Source: Minisyncoccota bacterium (GTDB taxonomy: Bacteria; Patescibacteriota; Minisyncoccia; Minisyncoccales; GWA2-38-27). Taken from it: 64,000 nt of DNA. The stretch covers positions 25,751 to 89,750 of the forward strand of contig JAQTZP010000004.1 in assembly GCA_028687715.1 (NCBI GenBank), read 5' to 3'. A program made the position numbers and the translations under genes. Of this stretch, positions 6,002 to 46,024 are shown piece by piece; the stretch's first letter is position 1, and each line of letters starts with the position of its first letter. The notes beneath the pieces were generated by a model. The model searched no databases and had not been told where the DNA came from. It saw only the letters and a list, made by a program, of their open reading frames with translations.

Positions 6002-6135
6002 TTCTCTCTCTCCTTATGCTTGAGTCAAAGAACATAAAAAGGAGCTATTTTCATATTGACTTATTTTTTTAATTATGGCAATAATACTCTATTGCTCTTT
6101 GCTTTTGCCCCAGCTATTTTAAAAGGGAGAACTAA

Positions 6136-6447: not shown

Positions 6448-6543
6448 TATCAGGCTAAATCGCTAAGGCGGTTTAGCTCTTTTTATTTAATAGAATAATA
6501 AAATATTTACAAAAGATTATTTATCTGCTAAACTCTTAATATT

Positions 6544-6807: not shown

Positions 6808-6821
6808 AAGAACTATTCTCT

Positions 6822-8632: not shown

Positions 8633-8639
8633 ATCTTGA

Positions 8640-9008: not shown

Positions 9009-9069
9009 ATTATTTTATTATTGATTTATATAATTTATTCTAACTTATTTTAAAAGGTCAGACAAGATA

Positions 9070-24950: not shown

Positions 24951-24958
24951 AAGATCTT

Positions 24959-26011: not shown

Positions 26012-26016
26012 TTTTT

Positions 26017-27816: not shown

Positions 27817-28122
27817 TTGCTTATGAGCAACTTTATATCCCCAGAAGCCGTAGTAATGCTTCTTGCCGCCGTTCTTCTTGATACAATAGGCTTTTTATTC
27901 TTGTTTCTCAGTTTTTTAGGCGTAGGTATTCCTCTTTCTTTTATCCCTGATTTAATTGGATTAATTTTTATCGGAGGCTGGATGTTTCTACGCTCTGGAG
28001 CAAGGCAAAAAAGAATAGGCAAGAGACTGGGTCTGGCTTTTTTAGGGGAAATAATCCCTTTTTTCGGAGATATTGCTCCCTGCTGGACCTTAGCTGTATT
28101 TTTTGAATTAAAAAATAATTAA
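27817..28122 (+). CDS. Small polytopic membrane protein (T4SS operon)
   Basis: 101 aa with about three hydrophobic helices. Track start is TTG; alternative ATG at 27823. Confidence 0.5.
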   Translation: MLMSNFISPEAVVMLLAAVLLDTIGFLFLFLSFLGVGIPLSFIPDLIGLIFIGGWMFLRSGARQKRIGKRLGLAFLGEIIPFFGDIAPCWTLAVFFELKNN

Positions 28123-28132
28123 TCTATATATT

Positions 28133-28480
28133 ATGAAAATTGCAATAACTATATTTTCATTACTTATTTTTCTTTTCCCGTCTATTATATATTCTTTTTC
28201 TAGACCCCCAGAGCTTGATTATCCTTTTACAGACCTTACTAATCTGCCCGGCTATATCATTTATCTTTATAATTTTGCAGTTGTGATAAGTGCATTTATT
28301 GCTCTTGGAGCTTTAGTTTACGGAGGCTTTAAATATCTTACATCAGCAGGAAATCCAAGCAAAGTTCAGGACGGGTTAGACCAAATTAAAGCAGCGATAT
28401 TCGGTATTTTGATTGTCTTGTGTTCTTATTTAATTCTTAAAACTATAAATCCTAATTTAGTAGTCTGGCCTTTCTTTTAA
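28133..28480 (+). CDS. T4SS pilin-like protein (TrbC/VirB2-type, CPR T4SS_pilin family)
   Basis: 115 aa. Signal/TM segment, then two helices around YGGFKYLTSAGNPSKVQDGLDQIKAAIFGILIV. The protein at 39210 has the same architecture. Confidence 0.6.
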   Translation: MKIAITIFSLLIFLFPSIIYSFSRPPELDYPFTDLTNLPGYIIYLYNFAVVISAFIALGALVYGGFKYLTSAGNPSKVQDGLDQIKAAIFGILIVLCSYLILKTINPNLVVWPFF

Positions 28481-28487
28481 AAATAAA

Positions 28488-28519
28488 ACACCGAGACTAT
28501 ATAACCTTGGTGTTTTTAT
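28488..28519. terminator. Intrinsic terminator between convergent operons
   Basis: Stem ACACCGAG (28488-28495) / CTTGGTGT (28506-28513), followed by a T-run. Confidence 0.6.
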
Positions 28520-28529
28520 TTTATCGAAA

Positions 28530-28991
28530 CTAAGCTTTGGGCCTTATTATCAATCTTCTTTCAGGCTCTTCTCCGATGCTCTCTGTTTCAACATCTTCTC
28601 TGTTTATCAGCTCTAAATGGATTATTCTTCTGTCATAAGAAGACATAGGAGACAGAATCTTTTCTCTTTTAGATAAAACAACCTCGTCAGCCAAAGACCT
28701 TGCTGTTTCTTTAAGATACTCGGTCTTTTTCTCTTTATAGCTGTTGATGTCAATATCTACGTAGAACTTCTGGTCTATATCCTTCCTAAGTATTGATTTT
28801 ATCAGATATTGAACTTCTGACAAAGTCTGGCCGTTCTGGCCGATTAAAATCTGAGGCTCTTCTGTTTTTATCTTTATAGAAATAGTATCTTCATATAGAT
28901 CTACTGACTTTATCTCAACTATAAAGCCTGCTTTTTGGAAAAACTCCTCCAATACTTTCTTTATTTTATTTAAATTTAGATTATCAATCAT
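28530..28991 (-). CDS. jag: Jag/SpoIIIJ-associated RNA-binding protein (KH + R3H)
   Basis: 153 aa. R3H motif region SYDRRIIHLEL. Conserved position downstream of yidC. Confidence 0.75.
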   Translation of the reverse strand: MIDNLNLNKIKKVLEEFFQKAGFIVEIKSVDLYEDTISIKIKTEEPQILIGQNGQTLSEVQYLIKSILRKDIDQKFYVDIDINSYKEKKTEYLKETARSLADEVVLSKREKILSPMSSYDRRIIHLELINREDVETESIGEEPERRLIIRPKA

Positions 28992-28994
28992 AAA

Positions 28995-29711
28995 CTATGC
29001 TGTTTTTTCTTTTTTTAGAACAAAATACTGCTGGATTATAGAAAATACAGAGCTTGTTAGAAAGTAAAGGGCAATAGCTGAAGGCATATTTAAAAGAATT
29101 ATAACGGTAAAAAATGGAAAAAAGTACTGCATTTGAGTCTGAAGTATTTTTGCAAAATCAGACTGACTCTTTAGGGAGCTTTTTGATTTAGGACCCATTG
29201 TTTTAACCTCAAGATACTGAAGGATTCCTGCTGAGGCAGCAAGATAAATATTTGATTTTGAAAGATTGAGAATTGATAAAAAATCAGGATTAATTGCTCC
29301 TTCAAAGGAAACAAAAGAGTAGAGAAACCTCATTTGTTCGGGATTAAGGCCCTGCCAGAATAATTGGTATAAAGCGATTAAAACAGGCAGTTGAATCAGC
29401 ATTGAAGAAAAGCCTGCGAAAGGGCTGACTTTTGCGCCTTTATAGACTTCCATAAGCTCTTTAGCCTGTTTTTCTTTGTCATCTTTGTACTTATTTTGAA
29501 TTTCTTTAATCTTCGGCTGAAGCTCTGAAAAAACTTTTTGAGACTTTATAGCTTTAACGTTTAAGGGATAAAGGATAAATTTTACTAAGATTGTTAAGAT
29601 AATAACCGCTATGCCGAAATCTCCAAAAGAGATATATTTGTAGATTACTATTAAAAAATTAAAAAGCGGCTGATAAAAAAAGACGTTGAAAAATTCAATT
29701 AAAAAACTCAT
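28995..29711 (-). CDS. yidC: Membrane protein insertase YidC (short Oxa1-type)
   Basis: 238 aa, about five TM helices, with a KSQKVFSELQPKIKEIQNKYKDD amphipathic loop. rnpA-yidC synteny. Confidence 0.85.
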   Translation of the reverse strand: MSFLIEFFNVFFYQPLFNFLIVIYKYISFGDFGIAVIILTILVKFILYPLNVKAIKSQKVFSELQPKIKEIQNKYKDDKEKQAKELMEVYKGAKVSPFAGFSSMLIQLPVLIALYQLFWQGLNPEQMRFLYSFVSFEGAINPDFLSILNLSKSNIYLAASAGILQYLEVKTMGPKSKSSLKSQSDFAKILQTQMQYFFPFFTVIILLNMPSAIALYFLTSSVFSIIQQYFVLKKEKTA

Positions 29712-29716
29712 ATATT

Positions 29717-30064
29717 TTATTTACTTTTGAAAAGATTTGCTTTTTTAAAGAGAATATCAATTCTTTTATCAAGCTCCCAAAAATCATTAATCTTCAATCC
29801 GGGCCTTATAATCATTATGCAGTCAAAACCTTTTTTAATCCCATCTAGCCTATTGCTTATTATCTCGCTTATTTTCCTTCTAAGACTATTCCTCATTACC
29901 GCTTTCTTGGAGAATTTCTTGCTTACAATAAAGCCAAACCTGGTACTTTTAAGATTGTTTCTATTTATTTTAAGGTATATAAAGTCTTCTTTATACCCCT
30001 GGCCTTTTTTAAAAACCTCCTCAAAATCCTTTATTCTTTTAAGCCTGTTTAGTTTCGGGAGCAT
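29717..30064 (-). CDS. rnpA: Ribonuclease P protein component
   Basis: 115 aa. LPKLNRLKRIKDFEEVFKKG start and FGFIVSKKFSKKAVMRNSLRRK (RNR motif). Located downstream of rpmH. Confidence 0.85.
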   Translation of the reverse strand: MLPKLNRLKRIKDFEEVFKKGQGYKEDFIYLKINRNNLKSTRFGFIVSKKFSKKAVMRNSLRRKISEIISNRLDGIKKGFDCIMIIRPGLKINDFWELDKRIDILFKKANLFKSK

Positions 30065-30079
30065 GAAAATATTTACCCT

Positions 30080-30214
30080 TTAAACGCTTAGTTTTTTTCT
30101 TCCTTTTTTTCTTCTTCTGGATAAAACCTGCCTTCCCTTTTTTGTTTTCTGACGGACTAAAAACCCGTGAGTCCTTTTTCTTTTTTTTCTTTTTGGCTTA
30201 TAAGTAAAAGACAT
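30080..30214 (-). CDS. rpmH: 50S ribosomal protein L34
   Basis: Own translation gives [44 protein letters not shown] (44 aa). It falls below the ORF-track size cut-off. Canonical rpmH-rnpA arrangement. Confidence 0.9.
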
Positions 30215-30308
30215 ATTCTAAAATTATTATTAATTACTGTTTGCTAATATAGTAGTATAATATTAAAATTAATCAGGGTCAACAAATCTGTTTTTTTAGA
30301 ACCAAGAA

Positions 30309-30362
30309 TTATCCATATTTAATCACCAACTTATCCACAGCTTGTTAACAAATAGTGGATTT
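30309..30362. promoter_or_regulatory. DnaA-box cluster in the rpmH-dnaA spacer (oriC part 1 and/or dnaA promoter control)
   Basis: TTATCCATA (30309-30317) matches the consensus TTATCCACA at 8/9. TTATCCACA (30331-30339) matches 9/9. A weak reverse box, AGTGGATTT, lies at 30354-30362. Confidence 0.7.
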
Positions 30363-30430
30363 CTCTGTTTATTTTAGTTTTGTTTTGACTTGTGTTAAAA
30401 TGAAATAATCGTAATTTTATTCCCATTATT

Positions 30431-31780
30431 ATGACAAACGAAGAGCTTTGGCAAGGCGTTCTTGCCCAAATTCAATTGAATATCTCCCAGGCAAACTTTG
30501 CTACTTGGTTTAAAAATACTTCTATTGTTTCTCAAAAAGAAGGCAGGTTGTTAATCTCTGTGCCTAATTCATTTGTCAGAGAATGGCTTGAAAATAAATA
30601 CAATAAGCAGATATTTAAAATAATCCATAATTTAAACGAAGAGATTAAGGAAATCAAATACAGCGTTGGGAAGGCCTCGGAAAAAGCTGTTAAAAAGGCT
30701 TCTATAGACCTGCTTGAAAGCGACCAGCTTGAGTTCCAAGAACTTAAAATAGACAAAGAAACAAACCTTAATCCCAAATACATCTTTGATTCTTTTATAG
30801 TCGGCCCCTTCAATGAACTGCCCCACGCAGCCGCCTCAGCAGTAGCTGAAAATCCAGGATACATCTATAACCCTTTATTCATTTACGGAGGAGTGGGTCT
30901 TGGAAAAACTCATTTGCTTCAGGCAATAGGCAATGAAGTTGCAAAGAACTTTAAAACAAAAAAAGTAAGATATATTTCTTCTGAAAAATTCACTTCAGAA
31001 GTTGTATTGTCTATTAAAAACCATCAAATTGACTCTTTTAAATCAAAATACAGAGCCATTGACGTCTTAATAATAGATGATATTCAGTTTTTAGCAGGAA
31101 AAGAAAAGACTCAAGAAGAATTCTTCCATATTTTCAACGTCTTATACGAGAATAATAAGCAGATTATCCTTTCATCTGATTGTCCACCCAAAGCAATCCA
31201 CTCGTTAGCCGAAAGATTAAGATCCAGATTTGAAGGAGGAATGACAGCGGATATAAGCAATCCTGATTTTGAAACCAGAGTTGCTATTTTAAAAACAAAA
31301 GCTCAGGAAAAAAAGGTTGATTTTCCAATTGAAGTATATAATTATCTTGCTTCTTCTATTCAAAAGAACATCAGGGAATTAGAAGGAGCCTTAAACAGGC
31401 TTATTGCTTATCAAAAAATAAACAACAAGCAGCTGGATTTGGAAACCATAAAGATTATTCTTAAAAACGTTCTAATGAGTCCGGCTAAGGTTATCACCCC
31501 AAAGAAAATCATCCAAACCGTGGCTGAATTCTATGATTTAAAAGAAAAAGACATTTTAGACTGCTCCAGAAAAAAAGAGATTGTAAGACCGAGACAAATA
31601 GCAATGTATTTATTAAGAGAAGAATTAAAAAGCTCTTTCCCTTTTATCGGAAGAAAATTCCAGGGCAAAGACCATACTACTGCCATTCATTCGTATAAAA
31701 AAATAGCTAAAGAAATTGAAAAAGATAAAAAACTGGAAGAAGAAATAAGTTTAATTAAAGAAAGGGTTTTAAGCTCTTAG
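30431..31780 (+). CDS. dnaA: Chromosomal replication initiator protein DnaA
   Basis: 449 aa. Walker A GGVGLGKTHLL, a sensor/box VII region, and a C-terminal DNA-binding helix (DHTTAIHSYKKI). Confidence 0.95.
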   Translation: MTNEELWQGVLAQIQLNISQANFATWFKNTSIVSQKEGRLLISVPNSFVREWLENKYNKQIFKIIHNLNEEIKEIKYSVGKASEKAVKKASIDLLESDQLEFQELKIDKETNLNPKYIFDSFIVGPFNELPHAAASAVAENPGYIYNPLFIYGGVGLGKTHLLQAIGNEVAKNFKTKKVRYISSEKFTSEVVLSIKNHQIDSFKSKYRAIDVLIIDDIQFLAGKEKTQEEFFHIFNVLYENNKQIILSSDCPPKAIHSLAERLRSRFEGGMTADISNPDFETRVAILKTKAQEKKVDFPIEVYNYLASSIQKNIRELEGALNRLIAYQKINNKQLDLETIKIILKNVLMSPAKVITPKKIIQTVAEFYDLKEKDILDCSRKKEIVRPRQIAMYLLREELKSSFPFIGRKFQGKDHTTAIHSYKKIAKEIEKDKKLEEEISLIKERVLSS

Positions 31781-31983
31781 AAGATGAGGAAAAAATGTTG
31801 ATAAGATTGTGGATTTAAAAGTGATAAAAATACAATAACTTTATCTATTAATTTATCCACAATTTATCTAATGTTTTTTAAAGGGAAAATTAGATATTAA
31901 TCCCCAATAAAACCTATATTAAAAACCTAAATTAAAACTTAACTTAATAATAATAAATTTTAATTAAAAACTAATAATTAATT
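31781..31983. other. oriC-like dnaA-dnaN spacer (DnaA boxes plus AT-rich unwinding-type tract)
   Basis: TGTGGATTT (31808-31816; its reverse complement AAATCCACA matches 7/9) and a perfect TTATCCACA (31853-31861). These are followed by about 80 nt of almost pure A/T (31900-31983). Confidence 0.65.
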
Positions 31984-33114
31984 ATGAGATTATCAATTTT
32001 ACAAGAAAAACTAAAAGAAGGATTAAATATTGTTGAAAGAGTTTCTTCTAAATCTTTATCTCTTCCTATTTTAAACAATATCTTGATTTCTACTGAAAAG
32101 AATTTCTTAAATTTAGCTGCAACTGATTTAGAGGTGGGAATAAATTGGTGGGTCTTGGCTAAAATTGAAAAAGAAGGAAAAATTACAATTCCCAGTAGAT
32201 TATTTTCAAGTTTTATTAATCTTTTACCTAATAAAAAGATAGATATAAAGGAGGAAAAGAATAATATATTTATTGAGTGTGAGAATTATAATACTCAAAT
32301 TAAAGGAATTTCAGCTGATGAGTTCCCTATTATTCCTAAAATAAATGAAGGCGAATCAGTGTCTTTTGATATTAATTTATTTTGTCAAAGCGTTAACCAA
32401 GTAGTTGATATTCCGGTATTATCAACTACTAGACCTGAAATTTCAGGAGTTTATTTCTATTTTAATAAGAATTTAATAACAATTACTGCCACTGATAGTT
32501 TTAGATTGGGCGAAAAAAAGATATTTCTTAAAAACAGCTTTAATTTAAAAAAAGAATATTCTTTAATTATCCCCCAAAGAGCTGTAAAGGAAATTATTAA
32601 TATATTCGGAGAAAAAAAAGGAGAATTAAAGGTATATTTTTCAACAAACCAAATAATGTTTGAGTCTTTTATGGAAGAAACAGAGCATTCTCAGATTCAG
32701 CTTGTTTCCCGCTTAATTGAAGGAGAATATCCGAATTATAAGGAGATTATACCTTCAAAATATGCAACTCAAATTATCTTGGATAAGAATGAGTTTTTAA
32801 ACCAAATAAAAGCAGCCAGCTTGTTCAGCGGCAAGGCTAATGAAGTTAAAATAAAATCAGGATCTGGCGATAAAACAATAGAAATTTCCAGTCAAAGTTC
32901 AGAACTTGGGAGTAATAAATCTTTAATTCCTGCTAAAATCAAAGGAGAATCAGTAGATATTTCGTTTAATTATAGGTTCCTATTAGATGGTATTTTAAAT
33001 ATTAAAAGCTCAGAAATTATCTTTGAGCTAAACAGCGATTCAGGTCCCGGGGTATTAAAACCAGTAGGAGATGATAGTTATATCTACGTAGTTATGCCGA
33101 TAAAGGCAAGTTGA
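31984..33114 (+). CDS. dnaN: DNA polymerase III beta sliding clamp
   Basis: 376 aa. The size, three-domain periodicity, position after dnaA and C-terminal YVVMPIK end are typical of DnaN. Confidence 0.9.
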   Translation: MRLSILQEKLKEGLNIVERVSSKSLSLPILNNILISTEKNFLNLAATDLEVGINWWVLAKIEKEGKITIPSRLFSSFINLLPNKKIDIKEEKNNIFIECENYNTQIKGISADEFPIIPKINEGESVSFDINLFCQSVNQVVDIPVLSTTRPEISGVYFYFNKNLITITATDSFRLGEKKIFLKNSFNLKKEYSLIIPQRAVKEIINIFGEKKGELKVYFSTNQIMFESFMEETEHSQIQLVSRLIEGEYPNYKEIIPSKYATQIILDKNEFLNQIKAASLFSGKANEVKIKSGSGDKTIEISSQSSELGSNKSLIPAKIKGESVDISFNYRFLLDGILNIKSSEIIFELNSDSGPGVLKPVGDDSYIYVVMPIKAS

Positions 33115-33134
33115 GATATTGAATTTAGATTATT

Positions 33135-33160
33135 AAAACCCGAAGCTGATTCGGGTTTTT
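33135..33160 (+). terminator. Intrinsic terminator after dnaN
   Basis: Stem ACCCGAA (33138-33144) / TTCGGGT (33150-33156), followed by TTTT. Confidence 0.65.
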
Positions 33161-33345
33161 GATTTATAAAATAGCTTAATAAATTTTCAAAAAGTTATAA
33201 GATATTTTATTTTTTAGGGGTTTTATATTCATCTATTTGTTTTATTTTAATAATTCGTTCCCATCCTTCGTAAGGCTTAATTCTCTCTTTTTTCCCCAAT
33301 TATAACATATATTATATTTTTAATTATATCTGATAACTTCACCCA

Positions 33346-33516
33346 CTAAGGAAGGTTACTGCAACCCATTAAACATTTTGAGACATCCTCTTCTTTAAAG
33401 GATATTAATATTTTATACCATTTGTGACCACATCTTGTGCATTGATAGGTTGCAAGAAATATTTTTGTAAAAATAACGCCTTTAGCATAAATTAATTTAT
33501 AAATAGATTCCTTCAT
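33346..33516 (-). CDS. Possible small Cys-containing (zinc-ribbon-like) protein, 56 aa
   Basis: Own translation gives MKESIYKLIYAKGVIFTKIFLATYQCTRCGHKWYKILISFKEEDVSKCLMGCSNLP. It carries CxxC and CxxxC pairs. It is below the track cut-off, sits in AT-rich sequence, and has no RBS evidence. Confidence 0.2.
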   Translation of the reverse strand: MKESIYKLIYAKGVIFTKIFLATYQCTRCGHKWYKILISFKEEDVSKCLMGCSNLP

Positions 33517-33645
33517 TGATGGCGTGATTCCATATTTTTTTATATAAATATTCAGGGTCAGAAGATATTTTATTCCCCTTACAAAGAGTGTTCTAAAGAA
33601 CTAATTTATAATAATATAAATTATTACCAAGAGTCAAGTGTTTTA

Positions 33646-33675
33646 TTGACAAAAATTAAAAGATGTGATTATAAT
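33646..33675 (+). promoter_or_regulatory. Near-consensus sigma70-type promoter for the SPFH gene
   Basis: TTGACA (33646-33651), an 18-nt spacer, then TATAAT (33670-33675). Confidence 0.5.
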
Positions 33676-33724
33676 TTATACATCAAGAAATAGGTTCTTG
33701 ATAGCGGAACCTTCACAATTTAAT

Positions 33725-34915
33725 ATGGAGGAAAATACAATGAAGATGTGGTATAGTTTTTGTCAGATAATATTTATCATCATTGCCCTGGTTATCGTCG
33801 GGGTAATAGCATTCTTTTTGGCAAAATTAATTTTTTGGCTCAGTATAATTAGTATCCCTATTCTAATTCTTATTTTCATCTATAATGCTATTACTATTAT
33901 TTCAGCAGATCCTCCCAATAAAGGAATTTGGGTTTTTTTTGGAAAAAGACAGAAAGTGTTATTAAAAGAAGGATGGCATTTCCTTCCTTTTTATCCTATT
34001 GTTTTTGATGCAATTTCAATTAGAGTGACTAAAATAAATCAAGATCTGCCCAATCAGGTAGTACGAACCCCCGATTTAGCAGAGGTTAGTGTAAGCATAA
34101 GCGTTACTTGGATTCCGGGTGGTCCGGACAATATAGATGAAAAAGATCAGGCAAGTGCCTTTATCCAATTTCTGAACAGCGGAGAGGAGGAAGGAGTTAA
34201 AAATATTCTCCAGGATATTATCAACGACAGGCTTAGAGGATGGGCGATCTCCGAAGAAGAGGGTCCGTCTGATTGGCAAGAATTATTGGGCGCCAGGGAT
34301 GATGCTATAACTGTTTTATTAAAAGCCATCCTAGGAGAAGATCTATCTTCTATTCCTTCTTCTGTCCCTACACCTGTGTTACTTAAATATTGGGATGTTC
34401 CCCCGAAGAGACCTTTAAAAAAAGAGATGAGTAAATGGGGAAAGAGAACTAGAAAAGGTAGTGAGTGGCAAAGATTAGAAGAAGAATTAGCCAAATTATC
34501 AGATCAAGAAAGAGAAAATTTAAAAATGAAAATAGAAGAAAGACGAAATCTTATTAAGATGGCTAGGCAAGGTAATGGGTTTTTTTATAAAAAACCTCTT
34601 GGTATTACAATTAATCGTTTTACTATCGATAACGCAGCCCCTCTAGGAAAAACTGCAGAAGCGGCTGAACTCAAAGCTAAAGAGCAACACGAAAGAGCTG
34701 CTGAAAAAACAGAAATAGAGGGAATTATGGATAGAATAAGAGATTTAAAAGATTTAGGCTTTTCTTTAGAGCAAGCCTTAGAAATAGTTCAATCTGAAAG
34801 AGGAAAGATTACTAAATCAGTTTCTGAGAGTAAGCTTAACATTTCTTCTGAGACGAGAGCAATGATTGAAAAAGTGTTTCCTGATTTAGCTAAATTATTA
34901 AAGAAAACAACGTAA
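33725..34915 (+). CDS. SPFH/Band-7 domain membrane protein with C-terminal coiled coil
   Basis: About 396 aa from the ATG at 33725. The track's GTG start at 33665 overlaps the predicted promoter. Two N-terminal TM helices. SPFH-like core (GIWVFFGKRQKVLLKEGWHFLPFYPIVFDAISIRV). Charged helical C-terminus. Confidence 0.65.
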   Translation: MEENTMKMWYSFCQIIFIIIALVIVGVIAFFLAKLIFWLSIISIPILILIFIYNAITIISADPPNKGIWVFFGKRQKVLLKEGWHFLPFYPIVFDAISIRVTKINQDLPNQVVRTPDLAEVSVSISVTWIPGGPDNIDEKDQASAFIQFLNSGEEEGVKNILQDIINDRLRGWAISEEEGPSDWQELLGARDDAITVLLKAILGEDLSSIPSSVPTPVLLKYWDVPPKRPLKKEMSKWGKRTRKGSEWQRLEEELAKLSDQERENLKMKIEERRNLIKMARQGNGFFYKKPLGITINRFTIDNAAPLGKTAEAAELKAKEQHERAAEKTEIEGIMDRIRDLKDLGFSLEQALEIVQSERGKITKSVSESKLNISSETRAMIEKVFPDLAKLLKKTT

Positions 34916-34921
34916 AAAAAG

Positions 34922-34945
34922 AACCCCATAAAGGGGTTTTATTTT
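34922..34945. terminator. Bidirectional hairpin between convergent genes
   Basis: Stem AACCCC (34922-34927) / GGGGTT (34933-34938), with A-runs and T-runs on either side. It abuts the stop codon of the minus-strand gene. Confidence 0.55.
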
Positions 34946-37014
34946 TTAAATAAATCTCTTAATTTTTTAGGTTTACTTTTTGCGGGGGGCTGGGTTTGTT
35001 TTTTTTCAATTTCAACGCCTGGCGGTAGAATTATTCTTGATATTACCCCTTTTTCTTTTTCTTCTTTCCATCGTTGCAATATTTCGGGTTTAATTGTGAA
35101 CATGCTTTGACCCGCCTGGCTGGAAAAATAATTTTTAAGAGTTGGACTTATATTGGCTCCAGTATTAATTCTTTCTTCTATCTTCGAGGCTGCATTTTTT
35201 CCAAGATTTTCAATAAGCTTATCTATATGTTTACTAGTAGCATTAATTAATATTGCATCCATTACTTCGGTGCTTTCTATTGCTTGACTAGATATCTTTT
35301 CGTAATCAGCAGGTTTCATTTTTTTAATTGTTTCCATCATGTCGGCGCCTTCAAGCATATGAGGTATTGCCTTGTCAATAACCTTATTAGACTGCCATTT
35401 CTTAGCCGTTTCTCTTATTTTCTTAATTTCTGCATCAGTTATATTCCCTTTTTTAACAAAGTCATTAAAGTTTCCATCTTCTATAATTTGATTTAATATT
35501 CCTACTTTATCAGTTTCAATCTTTGCTTTGCGGTAGGCGGATAATTGGGTTTCTGCTGTTTTTCCTTTTATGCTTTCTTGAGTTTTTTTAATCTGTTCTC
35601 TTTGGCTTTCAGTCAAGCCTGGGCCCAAAGGAGTTGCTATTGCCCTTCCAAGAGCAACAAAAGGAGTGCTTACAGTTCTTTTAGCCCAGCCTCCAATTCC
35701 GGTTTGGTTTTGTCCCCACTTTCCTGCAGTAGCCATTCCTGTCGCTGCTTTCCTAACCGCTGCTGGCACCAATTGTTTTACTTTTCCTGCCGCATACTTT
35801 CCTGCTGCTCCTGCGGCCTTCCCCCCGGCCCATCCAGCAGCTTGCTTGCCCCTTCTTTTAAATGAGTCTATTATCGCGCCAGAGCCTATAGCAGAGGTTT
35901 TTAGCCCAAATACCAGTCCAAGGCCTAGAAAAGCTAAAGAGACGAAATAGCTGATAATTCTGGCCTTAAAGCCAACAACAGCAGTGCTTCCAAAATTTAT
36001 ATCCGGTGAGCTAGAATTTATATTAGGCCATATGTTTATAAAATAGTTTGCCATAGAAAAGAAGAAGGCGCAGGTTATTCCAATGGTGGCCCATTGGACA
36101 AACTGCGTCCACCATGTATTCCAATACTGCCTTGTATTGGGCAGAATATAGAGGGCAAAGGCAATTGGGGATAAGATAACCAGTATCATTATGGCAAAGT
36201 ATCTGAGCAGAAAAATAGCGGCAAATAACAGATAAATAAAGAAGGATATCAGGTATACAAAAATTAAGACAAATAATTGAATAATACCTGTTTTAAATGT
36301 TTCATAATTCCAATTGCTCCACATTTCATATGAAAGACAGTCTGGAAGACTGTATATTGGCCTGCCTTGATAATAATAACAGGCGCTTTGCTGTTCTATT
36401 ATTCCTGATTTCTGAAAAAGGAAATAATCCATAGTAATATTTGAGGCATCAACAATAAGTCCGCATATAACAGGAGCAAAGTTTATAAGCAGAGCAATAA
36501 CAATAAAAGTGTATAAGGTTTTTTTAGTCCTGTAGTTTTCCAGTCTTAGCATGGTTGCCAGTCCAATAAACACTAAAACTAAAGCAAGCACCATATTAAT
36601 AAGACCTCTGGTATATCCCAGCCCTATTGCGACTATAGGATTAGTGCCTGGATTGGTAAGCTGCATTTCTAAAAAGCCAGGACTTATTACCCATTGTACC
36701 AGCGAGATGCCGAGGTCTTTCAACATTTCAGCTATTTTAGCAAACAGCCAGAAAAACATAGCGAAAAGATACATTATCCATGCTTCAATAAAGCTAAGGG
36801 ATTTAGTTTCAGACACTTTTTGATTATTCAAATAGTCTGCATAAGCGCCTGTTGGCATAACTCCGCCTGGTCCTGGGACAATGGGAAAAACAGTGCCTGT
36901 GCCAGGATCAACAACCTGAGCATTAGCAAATGAAGACAGAACAAGGATTGCGCCTATTAAGCATAAAGAGAAAGAAATAAGAATCTTTTTTGGGTTTTTC
37001 AATTTCTTAAACAT
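34939..37014 (-). CDS. Large polytopic membrane protein, candidate T4SS channel component (VirB6/TrbL-like role)
   Basis: 691 aa. Signal peptide, about 8 TM helices, an Ala/Gly/Lys-rich linker (GKQAAGWAGGKAAGAAGKYAAGK), and a soluble C-terminal domain. The functional call comes only from architecture and neighbourhood. Confidence 0.35.
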   Translation of the reverse strand: MFKKLKNPKKILISFSLCLIGAILVLSSFANAQVVDPGTGTVFPIVPGPGGVMPTGAYADYLNNQKVSETKSLSFIEAWIMYLFAMFFWLFAKIAEMLKDLGISLVQWVISPGFLEMQLTNPGTNPIVAIGLGYTRGLINMVLALVLVFIGLATMLRLENYRTKKTLYTFIVIALLINFAPVICGLIVDASNITMDYFLFQKSGIIEQQSACYYYQGRPIYSLPDCLSYEMWSNWNYETFKTGIIQLFVLIFVYLISFFIYLLFAAIFLLRYFAIMILVILSPIAFALYILPNTRQYWNTWWTQFVQWATIGITCAFFFSMANYFINIWPNINSSSPDINFGSTAVVGFKARIISYFVSLAFLGLGLVFGLKTSAIGSGAIIDSFKRRGKQAAGWAGGKAAGAAGKYAAGKVKQLVPAAVRKAATGMATAGKWGQNQTGIGGWAKRTVSTPFVALGRAIATPLGPGLTESQREQIKKTQESIKGKTAETQLSAYRKAKIETDKVGILNQIIEDGNFNDFVKKGNITDAEIKKIRETAKKWQSNKVIDKAIPHMLEGADMMETIKKMKPADYEKISSQAIESTEVMDAILINATSKHIDKLIENLGKNAASKIEERINTGANISPTLKNYFSSQAGQSMFTIKPEILQRWKEEKEKGVISRIILPPGVEIEKKQTQPPAKSKPKKLRDLFKK

Positions 37015-37045
37015 TAAAATATTATAACAGATATATCAAGTTAAG

Positions 37046-37879
37046 TTAACAAGTGGATAATTCACAGCTGTTTGTTAGCTTAATCCAATCATCAATACCT
37101 AATGTTTCAGCTCTTTGGCTTGGCCTAATTTCATTTTTCAAAAGCCATAACTTTATTCTGTTTTTATCCGATTTTAATTCTTTCGACAGGTTGTTTAAAA
37201 GCTGCTTCCTGGGCTGGGAGAAACCAGCTTTAACTATCTTAAAGAAGAGTTCCTTGTTGACCTTAATCTCGCTTGTCTTTGGAATAATTTCTATAACTGC
37301 GCTGTCTACTTTTGGCTTGGGCCAGAAATGATTTTTAGAAACATGTAAGATAATTTCAGCTTCTGCGTAGAATTGGACAGAAACAGCTAAAACATTCATT
37401 TTAGGAGGCTTTTCGCATATTCTCTCAGCCATTTCTTTTTGGACCAAAAGAACTATATTTTTAGGAGGACTTTTAGACTCAAGAAGCCTTTTTATAACAG
37501 GTGCTGTTAAATAATATGGGATGTTAGAGACCACATTATAATTATTCTGTATTTTATTATCAGATAGAAACCTTAAGATATCTTTTTGAACTATTTCTAT
37601 GTTCTTGATATCTTTTAGTGTTTTTTCCATTACCTTTATCATCTTAGGGTCTTTTTCAACTGCTATCACCTTTTTTGCCCTATTGGCCAATTCTTGGGTT
37701 AGATTTCCAATGCCTGGTCCAATCTCTAAAATAGTTTCATGCGGTTTAATAGAAGCTGTTTTGGTAATCCTTTGAGCTGTTTGCTTGTCAATCAGAAAAT
37801 TCTGACCCAATCCCTTAGAAGGAGAAATATTATGGTTTTTAAGAATCTCTTTGATGGTTTTTTGAGAAAATAGGTTCAT
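37046..37879 (-). CDS. rsmA: 16S rRNA (adenine1518/1519-N6)-dimethyltransferase
   Basis: 277 aa. GQNFLID start and SAM motif ILEIGPGIGNLT. Confidence 0.9.
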   Translation of the reverse strand: MNLFSQKTIKEILKNHNISPSKGLGQNFLIDKQTAQRITKTASIKPHETILEIGPGIGNLTQELANRAKKVIAVEKDPKMIKVMEKTLKDIKNIEIVQKDILRFLSDNKIQNNYNVVSNIPYYLTAPVIKRLLESKSPPKNIVLLVQKEMAERICEKPPKMNVLAVSVQFYAEAEIILHVSKNHFWPKPKVDSAVIEIIPKTSEIKVNKELFFKIVKAGFSQPRKQLLNNLSKELKSDKNRIKLWLLKNEIRPSQRAETLGIDDWIKLTNSCELSTC

Positions 37880-37987
37880 TGTGTTAATCTTACCCTTTTT
37901 ATAAATCCAAACAATATCTATAGGCTAATTGTGGAAAAACCCCTTGACCTCAGTTCTAAAAAAGGATAGGATTAAAATAACATAAAG

Positions 37988-39109
37988 ATGCTGCCTTTAT
38001 CTAATAATAAAGAGAATTTGCCTGTTGGAAGCGGCAATAAAAGGAATAAAAAGAAACGTAAAAGGGCTCTAAACCCTGTTTTTGTTAGCCTCTCATTCTT
38101 GTTTATTATCGTAATAGGAGTCTTGTTTTTTAAAGACAACAGCAATAAATCCCTTTTTGGACGGGATTTTTCTTTTTTGTCAGCAAACGCAAAAGATATA
38201 ATTTACTCCCAAAGATTATTTGTGGAACCGGCTAAAAATATTGTAAGTGATTCGCCTGATATAAATTTTGTTCAGGATAACAGTATAGCTAGAATTTGCC
38301 CTCCTGTTTCATTTAACCCCCAGTCTTTAGGCACTATTTTAGGGGAAGTGGATGTCGGCTCTGATATTGACGGCGAGATAAGGGAATACGTTGTTGAAGC
38401 AGGCGATACCCTTTCTTCTATTGCCCAGAAATTCAACATATCTCAGGAAACAATATTGTGGGCTAATAATCTAAAGAGCAAATCTGATATCAAGAATAAT
38501 CAGAAGCTTATAATCCTTCCAGTGTCCGGAGTCCTTCATATGGTAAAAGACGGAGATACTGTCGGTTCCATTGCCAAGGTCTACGGGTCAAGCTCGAAAG
38601 AGGTAGTTGATTTCAATAATTTGTCTGATGAAGGAAATATCTATATCGGAGATATTTTAGTTGTTCCCGGAGGAAAGGTGCCTCAGAAATCAGCGCCTTC
38701 GGTCCCTTCAATCCCCTTGGCTGATTCTTACTTTATCTTTCCCTGCGAAGGAACTATCAGTCAGGGCCCTCACGGCTCCTTCTTTAGCGCCATTGATATA
38801 GCCAATCAATGCGGCAAAATAGTTGTTGCCGCTGCCGGAGGAGTTGTTCAGAAGACGGGGTATATAAAAGTGGGAGGCAATATGGTGAATATCCTTCATC
38901 CGAACGGAGTTGTAACCTATTACGGACACCTTTCAAAAACAGCTGTGGCTCCCGGTCAGACAGTTGGAGCAGGAGATATAATAGGGTATATAGGAAATAC
39001 AGGCTATACTATCGGAGGCACTGGATGCCATCTCCACTTTGAAGTAAGGGGAGCAAAGAACTTTTTATCGCAGTATCCGGTAGGCACTTGCTTGAGCTGG
39101 AGGAAATAG
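37988..39109 (+). CDS. LysM-domain M23 family peptidoglycan endopeptidase
   Basis: 373 aa. N-terminal TM helix. Two LysM repeats (YVVEAGDTLSSIAQKFNIS and HMVKDGDTVGSIAKVYGSS). M23 catalytic motif HLHFEV. Confidence 0.85.
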   Translation: MLPLSNNKENLPVGSGNKRNKKKRKRALNPVFVSLSFLFIIVIGVLFFKDNSNKSLFGRDFSFLSANAKDIIYSQRLFVEPAKNIVSDSPDINFVQDNSIARICPPVSFNPQSLGTILGEVDVGSDIDGEIREYVVEAGDTLSSIAQKFNISQETILWANNLKSKSDIKNNQKLIILPVSGVLHMVKDGDTVGSIAKVYGSSSKEVVDFNNLSDEGNIYIGDILVVPGGKVPQKSAPSVPSIPLADSYFIFPCEGTISQGPHGSFFSAIDIANQCGKIVVAAAGGVVQKTGYIKVGGNMVNILHPNGVVTYYGHLSKTAVAPGQTVGAGDIIGYIGNTGYTIGGTGCHLHFEVRGAKNFLSQYPVGTCLSWRK

Positions 39110-39209
39110 GCTTAATCAATATCAATTTATAAAAGAGCAGATTAAGCTTTTTTATTTTGGAAAAGACAGTTCTTTTCTTTCATTTTAAAATATGTTAGAA
39201 TTTTAAAAG

Positions 39210-39647
39210 ATGAAAAAATCATTATTGATTATTTTTTTGATATTTACTGGATTATTATTTTTTACCAGTTCTGTTTCAGCTGCAGGAACAAATTGCCCGA
39301 CAGGACTGGTTCCCTGCGGTACAAGCGGCTGTCCCTGCACTCTGTGCGATTTTTTTGTAATGTTTAATAGGATTTTTGTATTCTTTCTTTATCCGCCGCC
39401 AATAGGAGGCGGAATTGTATTAGGCATTGCCATCCTAATGATTACATACTCTGGTTTTCTGTTTATGACCGCTTATACAGGATTGGCTGGAGATCCTCAA
39501 GGAGCTTTTTCAAGGGCAAAGCAGGTAATCATCTATACCATAATCGGGCTTTTAATAGTATACGGGGCTTGGATAATACTGCATACCTTTTTCTATCTTA
39601 TCGGTTTTAATAGATACGGAAGCTGGTATCAGGTTAACTGCCAGTAA
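39210..39647 (+). CDS. T4SS pilin-like protein (second copy, Cys-rich N-terminal region)
   Basis: 145 aa. Signal peptide ending SVSAAG, a Cys-rich stretch (NCPTGLVPCGTSGCPCTLC), and two TM helices flanking a GDPQGAFSRAKQ loop. Same architecture as the 28133 gene. Confidence 0.6.
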   Translation: MKKSLLIIFLIFTGLLFFTSSVSAAGTNCPTGLVPCGTSGCPCTLCDFFVMFNRIFVFFLYPPPIGGGIVLGIAILMITYSGFLFMTAYTGLAGDPQGAFSRAKQVIIYTIIGLLIVYGAWIILHTFFYLIGFNRYGSWYQVNCQ

Positions 39648-39720
39648 GCCCTCATAGCTCAATTGGCAGAGCAGATCCCTCTTAAGGATAAGGTTCCAGG
39701 TTCGACTCCTGGTGGGGGCA
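39648..39720 (+). tRNA. tRNA-Lys (anticodon CTT)
   Basis: Manual cloverleaf: acceptor GCCCTCA/TGGGGGC, D arm GCTC/GAGC, anticodon loop CTCTTAA, T arm CCAGG-TTCGACT-CCTGG. 73 nt, no encoded CCA. Confidence 0.85.
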
Positions 39721-42759: not shown

Positions 42760-45525
42760 ATGAAAGAAGATTTCTTGAAAACAGGGAATATAATAACAAT
42801 GGAAAAAGACATTGCCCGTCTTGAGGGCAGGGAGATTAAAAGACCCTCTGCTCCTGTTTTTATTGAACCCGAAGTTGTCAAAGCTAAGCCGGATAAAAAA
42901 AAAGAAGAAAAAAAGAAAGAAGAGGAAATCTTAGAAAACCAATTAAAAGAAAAAAGAAGGATAGAAGCGCTTCTAAAAGAAGAAGAGGAAAAGAGGCAAA
43001 AAGAGGAAAGACAAAAAATAATTGAAGAAGAAAAGAAAAAGCAGGAGATTAAGAAAAAAGAAGAAGAGGAAAGGATAAGGATTGAAGAAGAGAAAAAAAG
43101 ACAGGAAAAAGAAGCGCTGATAAGAGAGAGGGAAAAGGAACAGGAGATAAAGCGGATTGAAGAGGAAAAGAAAATCAGGGAAAAGATAAAGACAGAAGAA
43201 GAAGAAAGATTAATGGCAGATCCCAAAAAGAAAAGAGAGGCTCTTCTTGTCCAGCTGGAAGGGTTTAAAAAACAAAAAAACGAGATAAACAGAGAGCTTG
43301 AAAGATTTACAGTAGAAGAAAAACCTTTAAATAACAGAAAAGCAATACTCTTGAAAGAAATAGAAAGCATCAAGAAGGGTTTTGACCTTATCGCTGAGAG
43401 AGAAAAAAAGATAGAAGAAGAAGAAAGAGGGCTTGAAAGAAAAGAAGAAGAGGCTGTAGAGGCAAGAGATAGAAGAAAGCTGGAAAAAGAAAGATGGAGG
43501 ATAGAAGAAAAGAGGCAGGATCTTGAAAAGAAAAGATGGCCTTGGGACGAAAGGCTTAAAAATCTAAGCGATAAGATAGAAGAGATTGATATAGAGCTTA
43601 AAAGTATAGAGAATAAGGGATCTGGGTTTAGAAAGAAGGAGAAAGATATCAAGAAATCAGAAGACAATATCCGTCTTCAGATTGAGATAATTGATTTAAT
43701 AGAGGAGTCAAAGAAAATCGAAGAGCTTAAAAAGGTTGTCGCAGAGAAAAAGAACGAGCTTTTAAGCAGTTTAGATGGCTTTGATGAAAGAATTAAAGAT
43801 ATTTCAGATAAAGAAAAAGAAGTTGAAGAGGAAAAGAAGATAATTGAAAGCGAGGAGGAGACAAGCTCTGATTTTGAAAAAAGAAAAGAATTAGAACAAA
43901 AAAGATGGCAGATTGGAGAGGAAAGAAGGGGTATTGAAAAGCAAAGATGGCAGATTGAGGAGGAAAAAGAAAAAGTAGAGGATAATATCAAAAGAAGCGA
44001 AGAGAGATTCCAGAGTTTGATAAATAGAGCAAGCAGAATAATAGAGAGAAAGAAAGAAATTGAGAGAATTCTAACAGGAAAAGAACCCGAAGAAGAGGAA
44101 AAAAAGATAGAGAAAAAACCTGCTCTAAAACCTGTTGTTTTAGAGAAGCCAATCACTAAAGATAAAAAACCTGTTGAAGAACCTTTGATTTTAAAAGAAA
44201 AAGATGAAAAGCCTGAAGTATTTGATGAAAAGATTGAAGAAGCTAAAAAAAGAATTGCCGCTTTAAAAGACAGCCAAAAGGGGTCAGTTCAGAAGTGGGA
44301 GGACGAAGAAAGAAAAAGAGTGGAAAAAGAGGTTCTTGAAGAAAAAAAGAAGGCAGAGTTTTTGAAGATGGAGGAGGAAAGAAGAAAAGAGATTCTTTCG
44401 CGCTTGGAGGAAAAAGAAGTTGAGTTTGAAAAAGTTGAACCCATAGCAGCTTCTCCTCCTTTGAAAAAAGCTGTTTTAGAAAGAGATAAGGTTCCTAAAA
44501 AGACAACTTTTAAAGAAAAGCTTTGGGTAAGATTTTTAATATTCTCTTTTATCTTTACAATTTTAGCCGCAGTTGCAACTTTTTGGTACTGGTATCTCGT
44601 AGTAAATAGAAAGATTGTTGTTTTCCCTGACTCTGGAGGACCTCAAGAGGAAGCTGTTTTGCCTGAAGAGGAAGAATTAGAAGCTGGCTTGCCTGCTTCT
44701 ATTTTTTCCGCAGAAGAAACTAAAGTTATCAGCATATCTTCTTCAAATGAGTTAAGCGATTTAATAAAGCAGACTCTCGGCCAGTGGCATAATATAGAGC
44801 GTTTTAAAAGGATAGTAATAAAAGATGCAAAAGAGAATAAGATCCTCAATTTCAGAGAATTTCTGAATCATCTGAACATAGAGCTTCCTGAAAGCTTTTA
44901 TAGTATAATAGGAGACAAGTTCACTTTATTTATTTTCTCTCAAGCAGAAGGAAATAGAATCGGATTCGTGGTTGATATAGCCGATAAAAACAGAATGTCT
45001 TCTTTTCTTTCTTCAAGAGAGTCATCATTAAAACAGGACTTTAATCCTTTATACTCTCTAATGATAAATAATAATCCTGTTCTAAGCTCCCAATTCAAGA
45101 ATTCTTCTTCTGTAAGAGGTTATGTTGGTCTTAATTTCAGGTACCTGACTCTGGGGAAAGAAGATTTAGGTCTTTGCTATATTATCACTGATAATTATTT
45201 AGCCTTTACCAGCTCCTGGAACAGCGCTGTAAAGGTAATGGAAAGATTAAATATTGCTGGTTCTTCGGCAAAGATTGATAAAAATCTTAAGTACGGCGAT
45301 ACCGGAGAAGAGGTAACCCTTCTTCAATCATGGCTGGCTCAAGACTCTGTTATTTTCCCTGAGAAGATAATAAGCGGCATATTTGGAGATTCTACCAAAA
45401 GAGCCGTGATTCGCTTTCAGGAAAAATACGCTTCAGAGATTTTAGCCCCTCAGGGTCTTACCAGCCCAACTGGCGAAGTTGATTCTTTAACCAGGGAAAA
45501 ATTAAATGAGATTTATGGAAAATAA
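42760..45525 (+). CDS. Glu/Lys-rich coiled-coil membrane protein with C-terminal peptidoglycan-binding domain
   Basis: 921 aa. About 560 aa of E/K/R low-complexity helix encoded by purine-rich DNA (about 42880-44450). One TM helix (LWVRFLIFSFIFTILAAVATFWYWYLVV). An extracytoplasmic domain and a PG_binding_1-like end (GDTGEEVTLLQSWL...FGDSTKRAVIRFQEKY). Confidence 0.8.
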   Translation: MKEDFLKTGNIITMEKDIARLEGREIKRPSAPVFIEPEVVKAKPDKKKEEKKKEEEILENQLKEKRRIEALLKEEEEKRQKEERQKIIEEEKKKQEIKKKEEEERIRIEEEKKRQEKEALIREREKEQEIKRIEEEKKIREKIKTEEEERLMADPKKKREALLVQLEGFKKQKNEINRELERFTVEEKPLNNRKAILLKEIESIKKGFDLIAEREKKIEEEERGLERKEEEAVEARDRRKLEKERWRIEEKRQDLEKKRWPWDERLKNLSDKIEEIDIELKSIENKGSGFRKKEKDIKKSEDNIRLQIEIIDLIEESKKIEELKKVVAEKKNELLSSLDGFDERIKDISDKEKEVEEEKKIIESEEETSSDFEKRKELEQKRWQIGEERRGIEKQRWQIEEEKEKVEDNIKRSEERFQSLINRASRIIERKKEIERILTGKEPEEEEKKIEKKPALKPVVLEKPITKDKKPVEEPLILKEKDEKPEVFDEKIEEAKKRIAALKDSQKGSVQKWEDEERKRVEKEVLEEKKKAEFLKMEEERRKEILSRLEEKEVEFEKVEPIAASPPLKKAVLERDKVPKKTTFKEKLWVRFLIFSFIFTILAAVATFWYWYLVVNRKIVVFPDSGGPQEEAVLPEEEELEAGLPASIFSAEETKVISISSSNELSDLIKQTLGQWHNIERFKRIVIKDAKENKILNFREFLNHLNIELPESFYSIIGDKFTLFIFSQAEGNRIGFVVDIADKNRMSSFLSSRESSLKQDFNPLYSLMINNNPVLSSQFKNSSSVRGYVGLNFRYLTLGKEDLGLCYIITDNYLAFTSSWNSAVKVMERLNIAGSSAKIDKNLKYGDTGEEVTLLQSWLAQDSVIFPEKIISGIFGDSTKRAVIRFQEKYASEILAPQGLTSPTGEVDSLTREKLNEIYGK

Positions 45526-45544: not shown

Positions 45545-45919
45545 ATGAATAAAAAAACCATTAAAGAGCTTAAAGAGAAGCTTGAAAAGCAAAAATCAGA
45601 TATAGAGTCTGAGCTTTTAAAATTTGCCAAAGAGGATAAGAAAATCAAGGGAGACTGGGATACAAAATATCCCAGAACTGATGGAGGAACAGGAAGCCAG
45701 ACAATGGAGGATGCGGCTGACCAGGTAGAAGAATATGCCAATTTACTGCCGGTAGAGCATAGTCTAGAGCTAAGACTGAAGGATATAAATTTTGCCTTGG
45801 AAAAAATTAAAAAGAATAAATACGGAAAATGCGAAAAATGCAAAAAGCAGATTGACGAGGAAAGATTAAAAGTTTATCCAGAGGCAAGGTTCTGCGCTAA
45901 TTGTCCTAAAAAAAGATAA
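45545..45919 (+). CDS. DksA/TraR-family C4 zinc-finger protein
   Basis: 124 aa. C-terminal CEKCKKQIDEERLKVYPEARFCANC, preceded by a coiled-coil region. Confidence 0.75.
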   Translation: MNKKTIKELKEKLEKQKSDIESELLKFAKEDKKIKGDWDTKYPRTDGGTGSQTMEDAADQVEEYANLLPVEHSLELRLKDINFALEKIKKNKYGKCEKCKKQIDEERLKVYPEARFCANCPKKR

Positions 45920-45951: not shown

Positions 45952-46024
45952 TGCCCCCGGAAGGATTCGAACCCTCAACTAGGCGTCCGAAGCGCCTCGT
46001 GTTGTCCAGTTATACCACAGGGGC
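45952..46024 (-). tRNA. tRNA-Arg (anticodon TCG)
   Basis: Manual cloverleaf on the minus strand: acceptor GCCCCTG/CGGGGGC, anticodon stem AGGCG/CGCCT with loop CTTCGGA, T arm GAGGG-TTCGAAT-CCTTC. 73 nt, no encoded CCA. Confidence 0.85.

Follow-up and report, generated by a model that had tools for sequence, protein, structure and literature searches.

Patescibacteria carry chromosomal type IV secretion systems (T4SSs) that, according to the available portion of Quinonero-Coronel et al. 2025 (PMC12102498), are monophyletic and branch off from the monoderm MPF-FATA class. The components reported there are VirB4, TrsD, VirB3/PrgI, VirB6 (480 homologues, of which 304 lie close to virB4) and PF18895 pilins, frequently arranged as divergent arrays; a relaxase is generally or mostly missing, the genes lie near dnaA, dnaN, rnpA and ksgA, and an origin-linked dosage effect was suggested. 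In Southlakia, epibiotic growth requires the T4SS and its pilin array, and in the view of Wang et al. 2023 this system may export proteins rather than DNA (PMC10633639; PMC12857230). Herein, we analysed a 64 kb stretch of a Minisyncoccota genome (contig JAQTZP010000004.1; hereafter the window), whose GC content is low (28–44%), and focused on four genes at 34939–39647 that an original prediction, made from the sequence alone, had called a second T4SS-related neighbourhood. All absences and counts given for the window refer to these 64 kb.

The open reading frame (ORF) check returned the four genes at the positions and lengths first given: a 691-residue protein (34939–37014, −), rsmA (37046–37879, −), a LysM-M23 protein (37988–39109, +) and a 145-residue protein (39210–39647, +), here called pilB. 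The first T4SS module lies at 24537–28480 (+). The two modules had been placed about 7 kb apart with the dnaA-dnaN origin between them; the distance measured was 6.5 kb (28480 to 34939), with jag-yidC-rnpA, dnaA and dnaN inside.

T4SS components on both sides of the origin

The features published for the chromosomal T4SS of Patescibacteria recur in the window, namely an MPF-FATA-type VirB4 with a separate TrsD-like N-terminal part, PrgI/VirB3, a VirB6-like protein, PF18895 pilins as divergent (~25% identical) as those reported for pilin arrays, and a position beside dnaA, dnaN, rnpA and ksgA with no relaxase or coupling protein nearby (available portion of PMC12102498). We consider it likely that the neighbourhood is part of the chromosomal, origin-proximal T4SS characteristic of this phylum. 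Three features of the window differ in that we did not find them described in the available portion of the same paper: a cluster split across oriC by an inversion, a Cys-rich pilin subfamily between tRNA genes, and a LysM-M23 protein with a non-canonical first zinc motif fixed beside rsmA-VirB6.

Relatives were compared at 80 reference-genome loci fetched with the VirB6-like protein as the seed, onto which 20 window proteins were mapped, and, as a reverse test, at 80 metagenome loci seeded with the M23 protein, giving gene maps of 160 related loci in all. A hypothetical protein encoded in a "Candidatus Pacebacteria" metagenome-assembled genome matched the 691-residue protein at 100% identity; 66 further homologues were gathered, all from candidate phyla radiation (CPR) metagenomes, and 55 sequences were aligned (alignment A1). 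The protein consists of a signal or anchor segment (residues 8–29), a transmembrane core (residues ~75–380; nt 35875–36792), an Ala/Gly/Lys-rich linker (residues ~381–470; nt 35608–35874), a helical-repeat C-terminal domain (residues 470–655; nt 35050–35607) and a Lys-rich tail. Hydropathy peaked at residues 11–29, 73–98, 138–156, 170–188, 247–265 and 353–371, and the structural model adds two long helices at 266–344, so that at least six hydrophobic helices accompany the signal/anchor segment, where at least five are expected of a VirB6 protein. The linker had been noted as rich in Ala, Gly and Lys, and these account for 19, 16 and 9, respectively, of the 90 residues from 381 to 470. The core was common to all relatives at ~40% identity, and the C-terminal domain was matched by BLAST only in the 12 closest relatives. 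Because 57 Lys and Arg residues follow the last transmembrane helix, this domain is probably cytoplasmic by the positive-inside rule.

An AlphaFold2 model built from the alignment had a predicted local distance difference test score (pLDDT) of ~90 in the core and ~95 at residues 470–655, with low confidence in the linker. Among the six best Foldseek matches to this model, five were TrwI/VirB6 stalk chains and the sixth, a chain without a label, came from the same R388 complex, showing fold similarity to a solved VirB6. When A1 was compared by hhalign with A2, an alignment of 31 bona fide VirB6 sequences, the aligned stretch covered the conserved "SPIAF..ILP.T..W..WW.QF" core. Scanned singly, 14 of the 55 relatives matched Pfam TrbL (E < 1; best E 4.2e-6) and one matched TrbL_4; judged by these matches, the family sits at the edge of PF04610. 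In addition, among the 60 loci with a readable downstream side, 45 have the gene directly 5' of h137-VirB3-VirB4, the association expected of VirB6. We found no clear assignment to an unrelated family, and the proposal that the 691-residue protein is a T4SS part has gained from both its structural match and its gene neighbours.

Compared with TrwI/VirB6 of R388 (PDB 7o3v, 8rt9, 8rtd) and PF04610, the core aligns with the VirB6 GPL...T+..W..Q region, and the gene is likewise associated with VirB3/VirB4 and VirB2-type pilins. However, the identity is only ~14%, and the protein has 691 rather than ~300 residues, the extras being an N-terminal secreted segment, a Cys-containing β-hairpin loop (residues 212–221), the linker and the 190-residue helical-repeat C-terminal domain; its host is monoderm, and the VirB5, VirB7, VirB9 and VirB10 partners are missing. 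PrgH of pCF10 and the VirB6 analogues of monoderm MPF-FATA systems share the position directly 5' of VirB3-like and VirB4-like genes (prgH-prgI-prgJ) and the monoderm setting, whereas similarity to PrgH in sequence or profile was not significant and pCF10 lacks VirB2-like pilins and uses the adhesin PrgB instead. With good confidence, we regard the 691-residue protein as a divergent "extended" VirB6-type subunit, the term being used as in PMC12857230.

The 145-residue protein is the second pilin-family gene that had been predicted: it exceeded the cutoff of PF18895 (27.9 against 26.6 bits), for which pilA of the first module scored 35.3 bits, and the alignment of the two paralogues gave ~25% identity. 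PilB has a signal peptide, a GLVPCG...CPCxLCDFF motif, two hydrophobic helices and a conserved C-terminal Cys. Its Cys-rich N-terminal extension, with the spacing C-x6-C-x6-C-x-C-x2-C, is kept in the orthologues and therefore defines a conserved subfamily of VirB2-like pilins, whose members have in common a signal peptide, the motif "GLVPCG...C(P)CxLC(D/H)FF", a pair of hydrophobic helices and, at the C-terminus, "GWW/F..I.C"; some orthologues carry long Cys-rich C-terminal extensions. The conserved cysteines probably form extracellular disulfides. The model of PilB shows helices at residues 2–24 (signal), 69–90 and 96–136, that is, a signal peptide followed by a two-helix hairpin as expected of such a pilin, with a hairpin pLDDT of ~85. 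The N-terminus of PilA-type pilins is different, reading "LExxYP...LPxYxxYxxNF".

A sub-clade of six related loci (L005, L019, L026, L033, L057, L065; about 3300–9800 in each) has three extra co-directional genes between rsmA and the VirB6-like gene. Two of them encode proteins of ~770 and ~430–480 residues with PilA-like N-termini, 'LE(I/V)xYP...LPEY(V/L)KY(I/V)FNF', and the third a secreted protein of ~900 residues. From their N-termini, the first two may be pilin fusions or tip adhesins of the T4SS.

Several results weigh against these identifications. The functional evidence for Patescibacterial T4SSs comes from a distant class, Saccharimonadia. For the 691-residue protein, PF04610 (TrbL/VirB6) scored 15.9 bits (E 0.012) and did not reach the cutoff of 25.9; the TrwI/VirB6 matches of Foldseek, with probabilities of 0.85–1.00, had E-values of only 0.1–0.5; and hhalign of A1 against A2 gave P = 6.2e-4 over 152 columns at a probability of only 28%. 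Of the comparisons that had been proposed as checks, Foldseek thus pointed to TrwI/VirB6, whereas the family profile aligned with single sequences was not significant (1.4% probability for PrgH of pCF10, 0.7% for Agrobacterium VirB6). For PilB, the Cys-rich segment was modelled with low confidence, the fold search returned no conjugative pilins, and in most relatives the gene lies 8–10 kb from the VirB6-like gene within a housekeeping block between tRNA genes, so that it is tied to the apparatus by family and not by operon. Sequence searches of the PDB with the 691-residue protein and its family profile returned low-complexity and coiled-coil noise only, and the PHROGs comparison added nothing. 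A precomputed PF19590 label on this exact protein was settled neither by the Pfam scan nor by the literature; PF19590 is probably TrbL-like. On balance, the assignments of PilB as a T4SS pilin and of the 691-residue protein as VirB6-like probably stand.

The first module is directly 3' of the VirB6-like gene in most relatives. In the window it comprises, all on the + strand, h137 (24537–24950), a PrgI/VirB3-like gene (24959–25360; PrgI 6e-4, below the cutoff), a VirB4 N-part/TrsD-like gene (25361–26011) matching the N-terminal regions of VirB4 models and TrsD, the VirB4 ATPase gene (26017–27816; NF045971, VirB4-like CD1110 family, 3.5e-114), tm101 (27817–28122) and pilA (28133–28480). The soluble 137-residue product of h137, which has no Pfam family, is encoded between the VirB6-like gene and VirB3 in 37/80 loci, and the 101-residue membrane protein of tm101, also outside Pfam families, 3' of VirB4 in 15/80 loci (tblastn). 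Both are conserved members of the cluster and candidate T4SS components.

As VirB4 belongs to the CD1110/MPF-FATA conjugation family and the gene order resembles prgH-prgI-prgJ of pCF10, these genes could be read as remnants of an integrated conjugative element instead of a domesticated chromosomal system. However, none of the window ORFs of at least 430 residues encoded a VirD4 coupling protein or a relaxase, and there was no integrase in the 64 kb. The GC content of the T4SS genes was uniform with that of their flanks, their chromosomal position beside rsmA and oriC has been kept over ~160 loci at only 25–55% protein identity, and they are interleaved with essential housekeeping genes. The element was rejected on these grounds as highly improbable, leaving the chromosomal T4SS as the preferred reading.

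Gene order in relatives and two inversions

The commonest order in the relatives, with the VirB6-like gene on the + strand, begins with the CCA gene (−) and tRNA-Arg (+), followed by the block pilB, tRNA-Lys, rpsO, NYN, pnp, p921 and p124 (all +), the M23 gene (−), rsmA (+) and the VirB6-like gene (+). To its right stand h137, VirB3, the two VirB4 parts, tm101 and pilA (all +), then jag, yidC and rnpA (all −), oriC, dnaA (+), dnaN (+) and a class A penicillin-binding protein (PBP) gene (−). The two modules do co-occur, as the original prediction required: VirB6-h137-VirB3-VirB4 was contiguous in the 45 informative loci mentioned above, and in the other 15 of the 60, including the closest relatives of the window, it was split as in the window, with the VirB6-like gene followed by dnaN (−), dnaA (−), rnpA (+), yidC (+), jag (+) and pilA (−).

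The split order is explained by a single inversion of the block from h137 through VirB3, VirB4, tm101, the pilin gene, jag, yidC, rnpA, oriC and dnaA to dnaN. The far side of this block is flanked by the same class A PBP gene in both arrangements, its identity having been confirmed, and a neighbour-joining tree, built roughly from the VirB6 core, placed the split order within one half only, the other half being all contiguous. Relative to the commonest order, the split layout is derived; in most relatives the cluster is unbroken and stays to a single side of oriC. The origin itself (30065–31983, covering dnaA with the spacers that separate it from rnpA and from dnaN) is contained in the inverted block. 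Across the 64 kb there are only two exact DnaA boxes, at 30331–30339 and 31853–31861 on either side of dnaA, with one-mismatch boxes beside them at 30116, 30309 and 31796. Cumulative GC skew was lowest at ~30–32 kb and coincides with these boxes, so the placement of the origin between the modules is sound.

It had been suggested that the apparatus is encoded in two parts bracketing oriC, where gene dosage is highest. Consistent with a dosage advantage, many relatives have the T4SS cluster close to the origin, with dnaA within the locus in 22 of the 80 VirB6-seeded loci and in 15 of the 33 that span at least 18 kb; the available portion of PMC12102498 reports the dnaA, dnaN, rnpA and ksgA neighbourhood and had itself proposed the dosage effect, so that the idea is not new; and the T4SS of Southlakia has locus tags 0006–0019, near the start of chromosome numbering (PMC10633639). 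However, bracketing is the minority arrangement (15 split loci, 45 contiguous ones), occurs in one part of the family tree only and is accounted for by one inversion with the same flanking genes, which does not support it as a conserved design. Since the contiguous cluster is equally near oriC, splitting adds no dosage. We also infer that a dosage benefit would require overlapping replication rounds, which are unexpected in slow-growing ultrasmall epibionts. An adaptive bipartite layout is thus improbable, and we retain the inversion as the explanation.

Both T4SS halves of the window, 24537–28480 (+) and 34939–37879 (−), run towards oriC, head-on with replication, as does the contiguous cluster of the relatives. 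This polarity was preserved because the origin sits within the inverted block.

The adjacency of pilB and the M23 gene in the window is explained by a second inversion, which flipped the block of pilB, tRNA-Lys, rpsO, NYN, pnp, p921 and p124. The tRNA genes are its markers. The tRNA-Lys(CTT) gene (39648–39720, +; Rfam and ARAGORN) immediately follows the pilB stop codon, with no base between them, and is a member of the conserved block pilB-tRNA-Lys-rpsO-NYN-pnp; it adjoined rpsO on the pilB side in 14/14 related loci checked, with a pilB match in the block in 13 of them. The tRNA-Arg(TCG) gene (45952–46024, −; ARAGORN) marks the far breakpoint. In six contiguous-type loci checked, tRNA-Arg (+) lay 0.1–0.3 kb 5' of pilB (+), whereas in the window-like loci, three of which show it (L013, L015, L024), it lay beyond pnp and p124 on the opposite strand; in the window it was likewise left behind. 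In many relatives (e.g. L036, L047, L063, L066, L078) pilB is thus flanked by tRNA-Arg(TCG) and tRNA-Lys(CTT), 5' of rpsO-NYN-pnp. Such a tRNA-flanked housekeeping setting is unusual for a T4SS pilin and, as far as gene order can tell, hints at co-transcription.

As the two inverted segments lie on either side of the trio M23-rsmA-VirB6, this trio is a fixed hub. A search for inverted repeats at the inversion breakpoints found AT-rich chance matches only.

Some further genes and signals belong to this neighbourhood. The block with pilB, rpsO and pnp is accompanied by p921 (42760–45525, +), whose 921-residue product has a C-terminal PG_binding_1 domain, and by p124 (45545–45919, +; 124 residues). 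They occur in 29/80 and 34/80 loci, respectively, and in the uninverted arrangement they are directly beside the M23 gene; p921 encodes a further wall-associated protein of the conserved neighbourhood. The SPFH protein gene (33665–34915) was considered as a T4SS part and rejected: of the 80 VirB6-seeded loci, only 3 have it at the VirB6 junction, as does one M23-seeded locus (L120), and its place at the right-hand breakpoint is specific to the lineage. A perfect sigma-70 consensus, TTGACA-18-TATAAT, at 33646–33675 (+) overlaps the listed GTG start (33665) of this SPFH/Band-7 ORF, whose true start is probably a downstream ATG. A terminator-like hairpin (34920–34940), with stem-loops at 34920–34940 (+) and 34938–34922 (−), separates the convergent SPFH and VirB6-like genes on the right-hand breakpoint side of the first inversion.

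The LysM-M23 protein beside rsmA

The rsmA/ksgA gene (37046–37879, −), encoding the 16S rRNA dimethyladenosine transferase (TIGR00755, 9.3e-74; PF00398, 3.6e-60), is a housekeeping gene and not a part of the T4SS. It is a conserved 5' neighbour of the VirB6-like gene, lying directly 5' on the same strand in 40/72 loci. In the window, 31 nt separate the rsmA stop from the VirB6-like start, and a promoter-like TTAACT-17-TGnTATAAT is present at 37049–37021. Divergent from rsmA is the gene of a 373-residue protein (37988–39109, +) with an N-terminal membrane anchor, LysM in two stretches and Peptidase_M23 (2.5e-24, Pfam), the domain content that had been predicted.

M23 peptidases are not what T4SSs typically use to breach the wall: enzymes of the VirB1 type have lytic transglycosylase activity, and those of monoderms bring CHAP or NlpC/P60 domains. 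Like VirB1, PrgK, TraG of pIP501 and CwlT, the window protein is a secreted or membrane-anchored wall-targeting protein within a T4SS neighbourhood. However, it has LysM and M23 in place of the lytic transglycosylase, CHAP or NlpC-P60 domains, and Pfam and NCBIfam scans found no SLT, CHAP or NlpC-P60 domain on it; its HxxxD motif is altered; and it is divergently transcribed and linked most tightly to rsmA. The description of this protein as the type of enzyme by which T4SSs breach peptidoglycan was therefore overstated. In an alignment with solved M23 enzymes (M23 domain, residues ~260–356), the first zinc His of HxxxD was Phe in the window protein and Y/F/G in 45 orthologues, while the HLH and YGHL His residues were intact across the family and an invariant His stood a few residues to the N-terminal side of the HxxxD site ('GLH--WYNAID' in the family, 'GPHGSFFSAID' in the window). 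These motifs would suit either an active enzyme whose zinc ligand has shifted or a degenerate LytM-type regulator.

The M23 gene adjoined rsmA divergently in 51 of the 52 loci with both genes. In the M23-seeded loci, rsmA was adjacent in 52/60, and the VirB6-like gene accompanied M23 in 22 of the 26 whose sequence extends for at least 9 kb on this side. The link between M23 and the T4SS is thus strong in both directions, yet it is equally a link to the housekeeping gene rsmA. One explanation is that the LysM-M23 protein, or the rsmA-M23 unit, is a housekeeping wall or division factor, either an active DD-endopeptidase or a degenerate LytM regulator such as DipM, EnvC, NlpD or ActS, which lies beside the VirB6-like gene through conserved order only. 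Besides the counts for rsmA, the family-wide substitution in HxxxD and the missing VirB1-type domains, this explanation fits the best partial NCBIfam matches of the protein, DipM and ActS, and the loci with pilin-type inserts between rsmA and the VirB6-like gene, in which M23 remains with rsmA. Moreover, within ~10 kb on that side, two loci (L121, L161) have neither rsmA nor any T4SS gene, and in a third (L157) rsmA is ~9 kb off and no T4SS gene is present. Yet the trio M23-rsmA-VirB6 has stayed intact through two independent flanking inversions, the VirB6-like gene accompanies M23 in most loci with enough sequence, and the available portion of PMC12102498 mentions both some VirB1 homologues of Patescibacteria with M23 and LysM domains and peptidase and lysozyme genes beside virB4 that are essential in Southlakia. 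We place the housekeeping explanation slightly short of an even chance; the protein is about as likely to act specifically for the T4SS as to be a general factor of the wall or of division. The LysM-M23 protein is a candidate peptidoglycan remodeller by its domains, and a role in the T4SS is plausible.

Proposed mechanism and meaning for the lineage

In the reading that we prefer, the system derives from monoderm conjugation machinery of the MPF-FATA class, with VirB2-like pilins in addition. By analogy with TrwI in the R388 structure, the 691-residue protein may form an oligomer in the cytoplasmic membrane, positioned over the VirB3/VirB4 ATPase complex, where it would form the channel base and the platform at which pilin subunits exit the membrane and polymerise; its C-terminal helical-repeat domain and flexible linker would face the cytoplasm by the positive-inside rule. 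The 145-residue protein would act as a second, Cys-rich VirB2-like pilin that is secreted by its signal peptide, inserts as a helical hairpin and forms disulfides. The LysM-M23 protein may serve as a membrane-anchored wall-binding factor that opens or remodels peptidoglycan for the apparatus, or as a general wall or division factor, and rsmA is a housekeeping neighbour. With no relaxase or coupling protein nearby, the system probably serves the epibiotic lifestyle and not conjugation, as the literature proposes.

A more specific model is rather speculative and on present grounds unlikely to hold in full: M23-rsmA-VirB6 would be a functional hub and not an order frozen by chance, in which M23, with its first zinc ligand shifted, is dedicated to replacing VirB1 in Paceibacteria-type T4SSs, as an active wall-opening enzyme or a regulator of one, and PilB, encoded between tRNA-Arg and tRNA-Lys 5' of rpsO, would be a highly and constitutively expressed major or tip pilin whose disulfide-stabilised pilus mediates host contact.

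Elsewhere in the window, a secreted 1421-residue protein (15493–19758, −) is very rich in Cys and Gly; its sole Pfam match, close to the C-terminus, is to an Ig-like Rha78A N-terminal domain, and it is probably a surface or adhesion protein. Near it are encoded a lamin-tail-domain protein (14241–15428) and a PilB/T2SSE ATPase (11726–13042). Three paralogous B12-binding radical SAM proteins (341–1837, 4463–6001, 57665–59245) are encoded in this 64 kb portion of what is a very small genome.

Few machines have been shown to be essential for Patescibacteria to live as epibionts, and the T4SS is among them. The locus adds no new kind of system but a known one recognised in a new genome; the system, its VirB6 and pilin components, the ksgA/dnaA neighbourhood and the dosage idea are already published (available portion of PMC12102498; Wang et al. 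2023). The new details are modest, namely the two inversions, a Cys-rich subfamily of pilins encoded between tRNA genes, and an M23 motif that departs from the canonical form. For Paceibacteria/Nealsonbacteria-type lineages, structure and synteny back the long, sparsely annotated "hypothetical" proteins beside rsmA as the VirB6 subunit. The reconstruction of the inversions separates the conserved adjacencies (M23-rsmA-VirB6 and VirB6-h137-VirB3-VirB4) from the incidental ones (pilB-M23 and the bracketing of oriC), and cautions that an origin-bracketing layout should not be taken as design. The locus also offers the Cys-rich pilin subfamily and the non-canonical LysM-M23 protein as candidate accessory parts of the apparatus.

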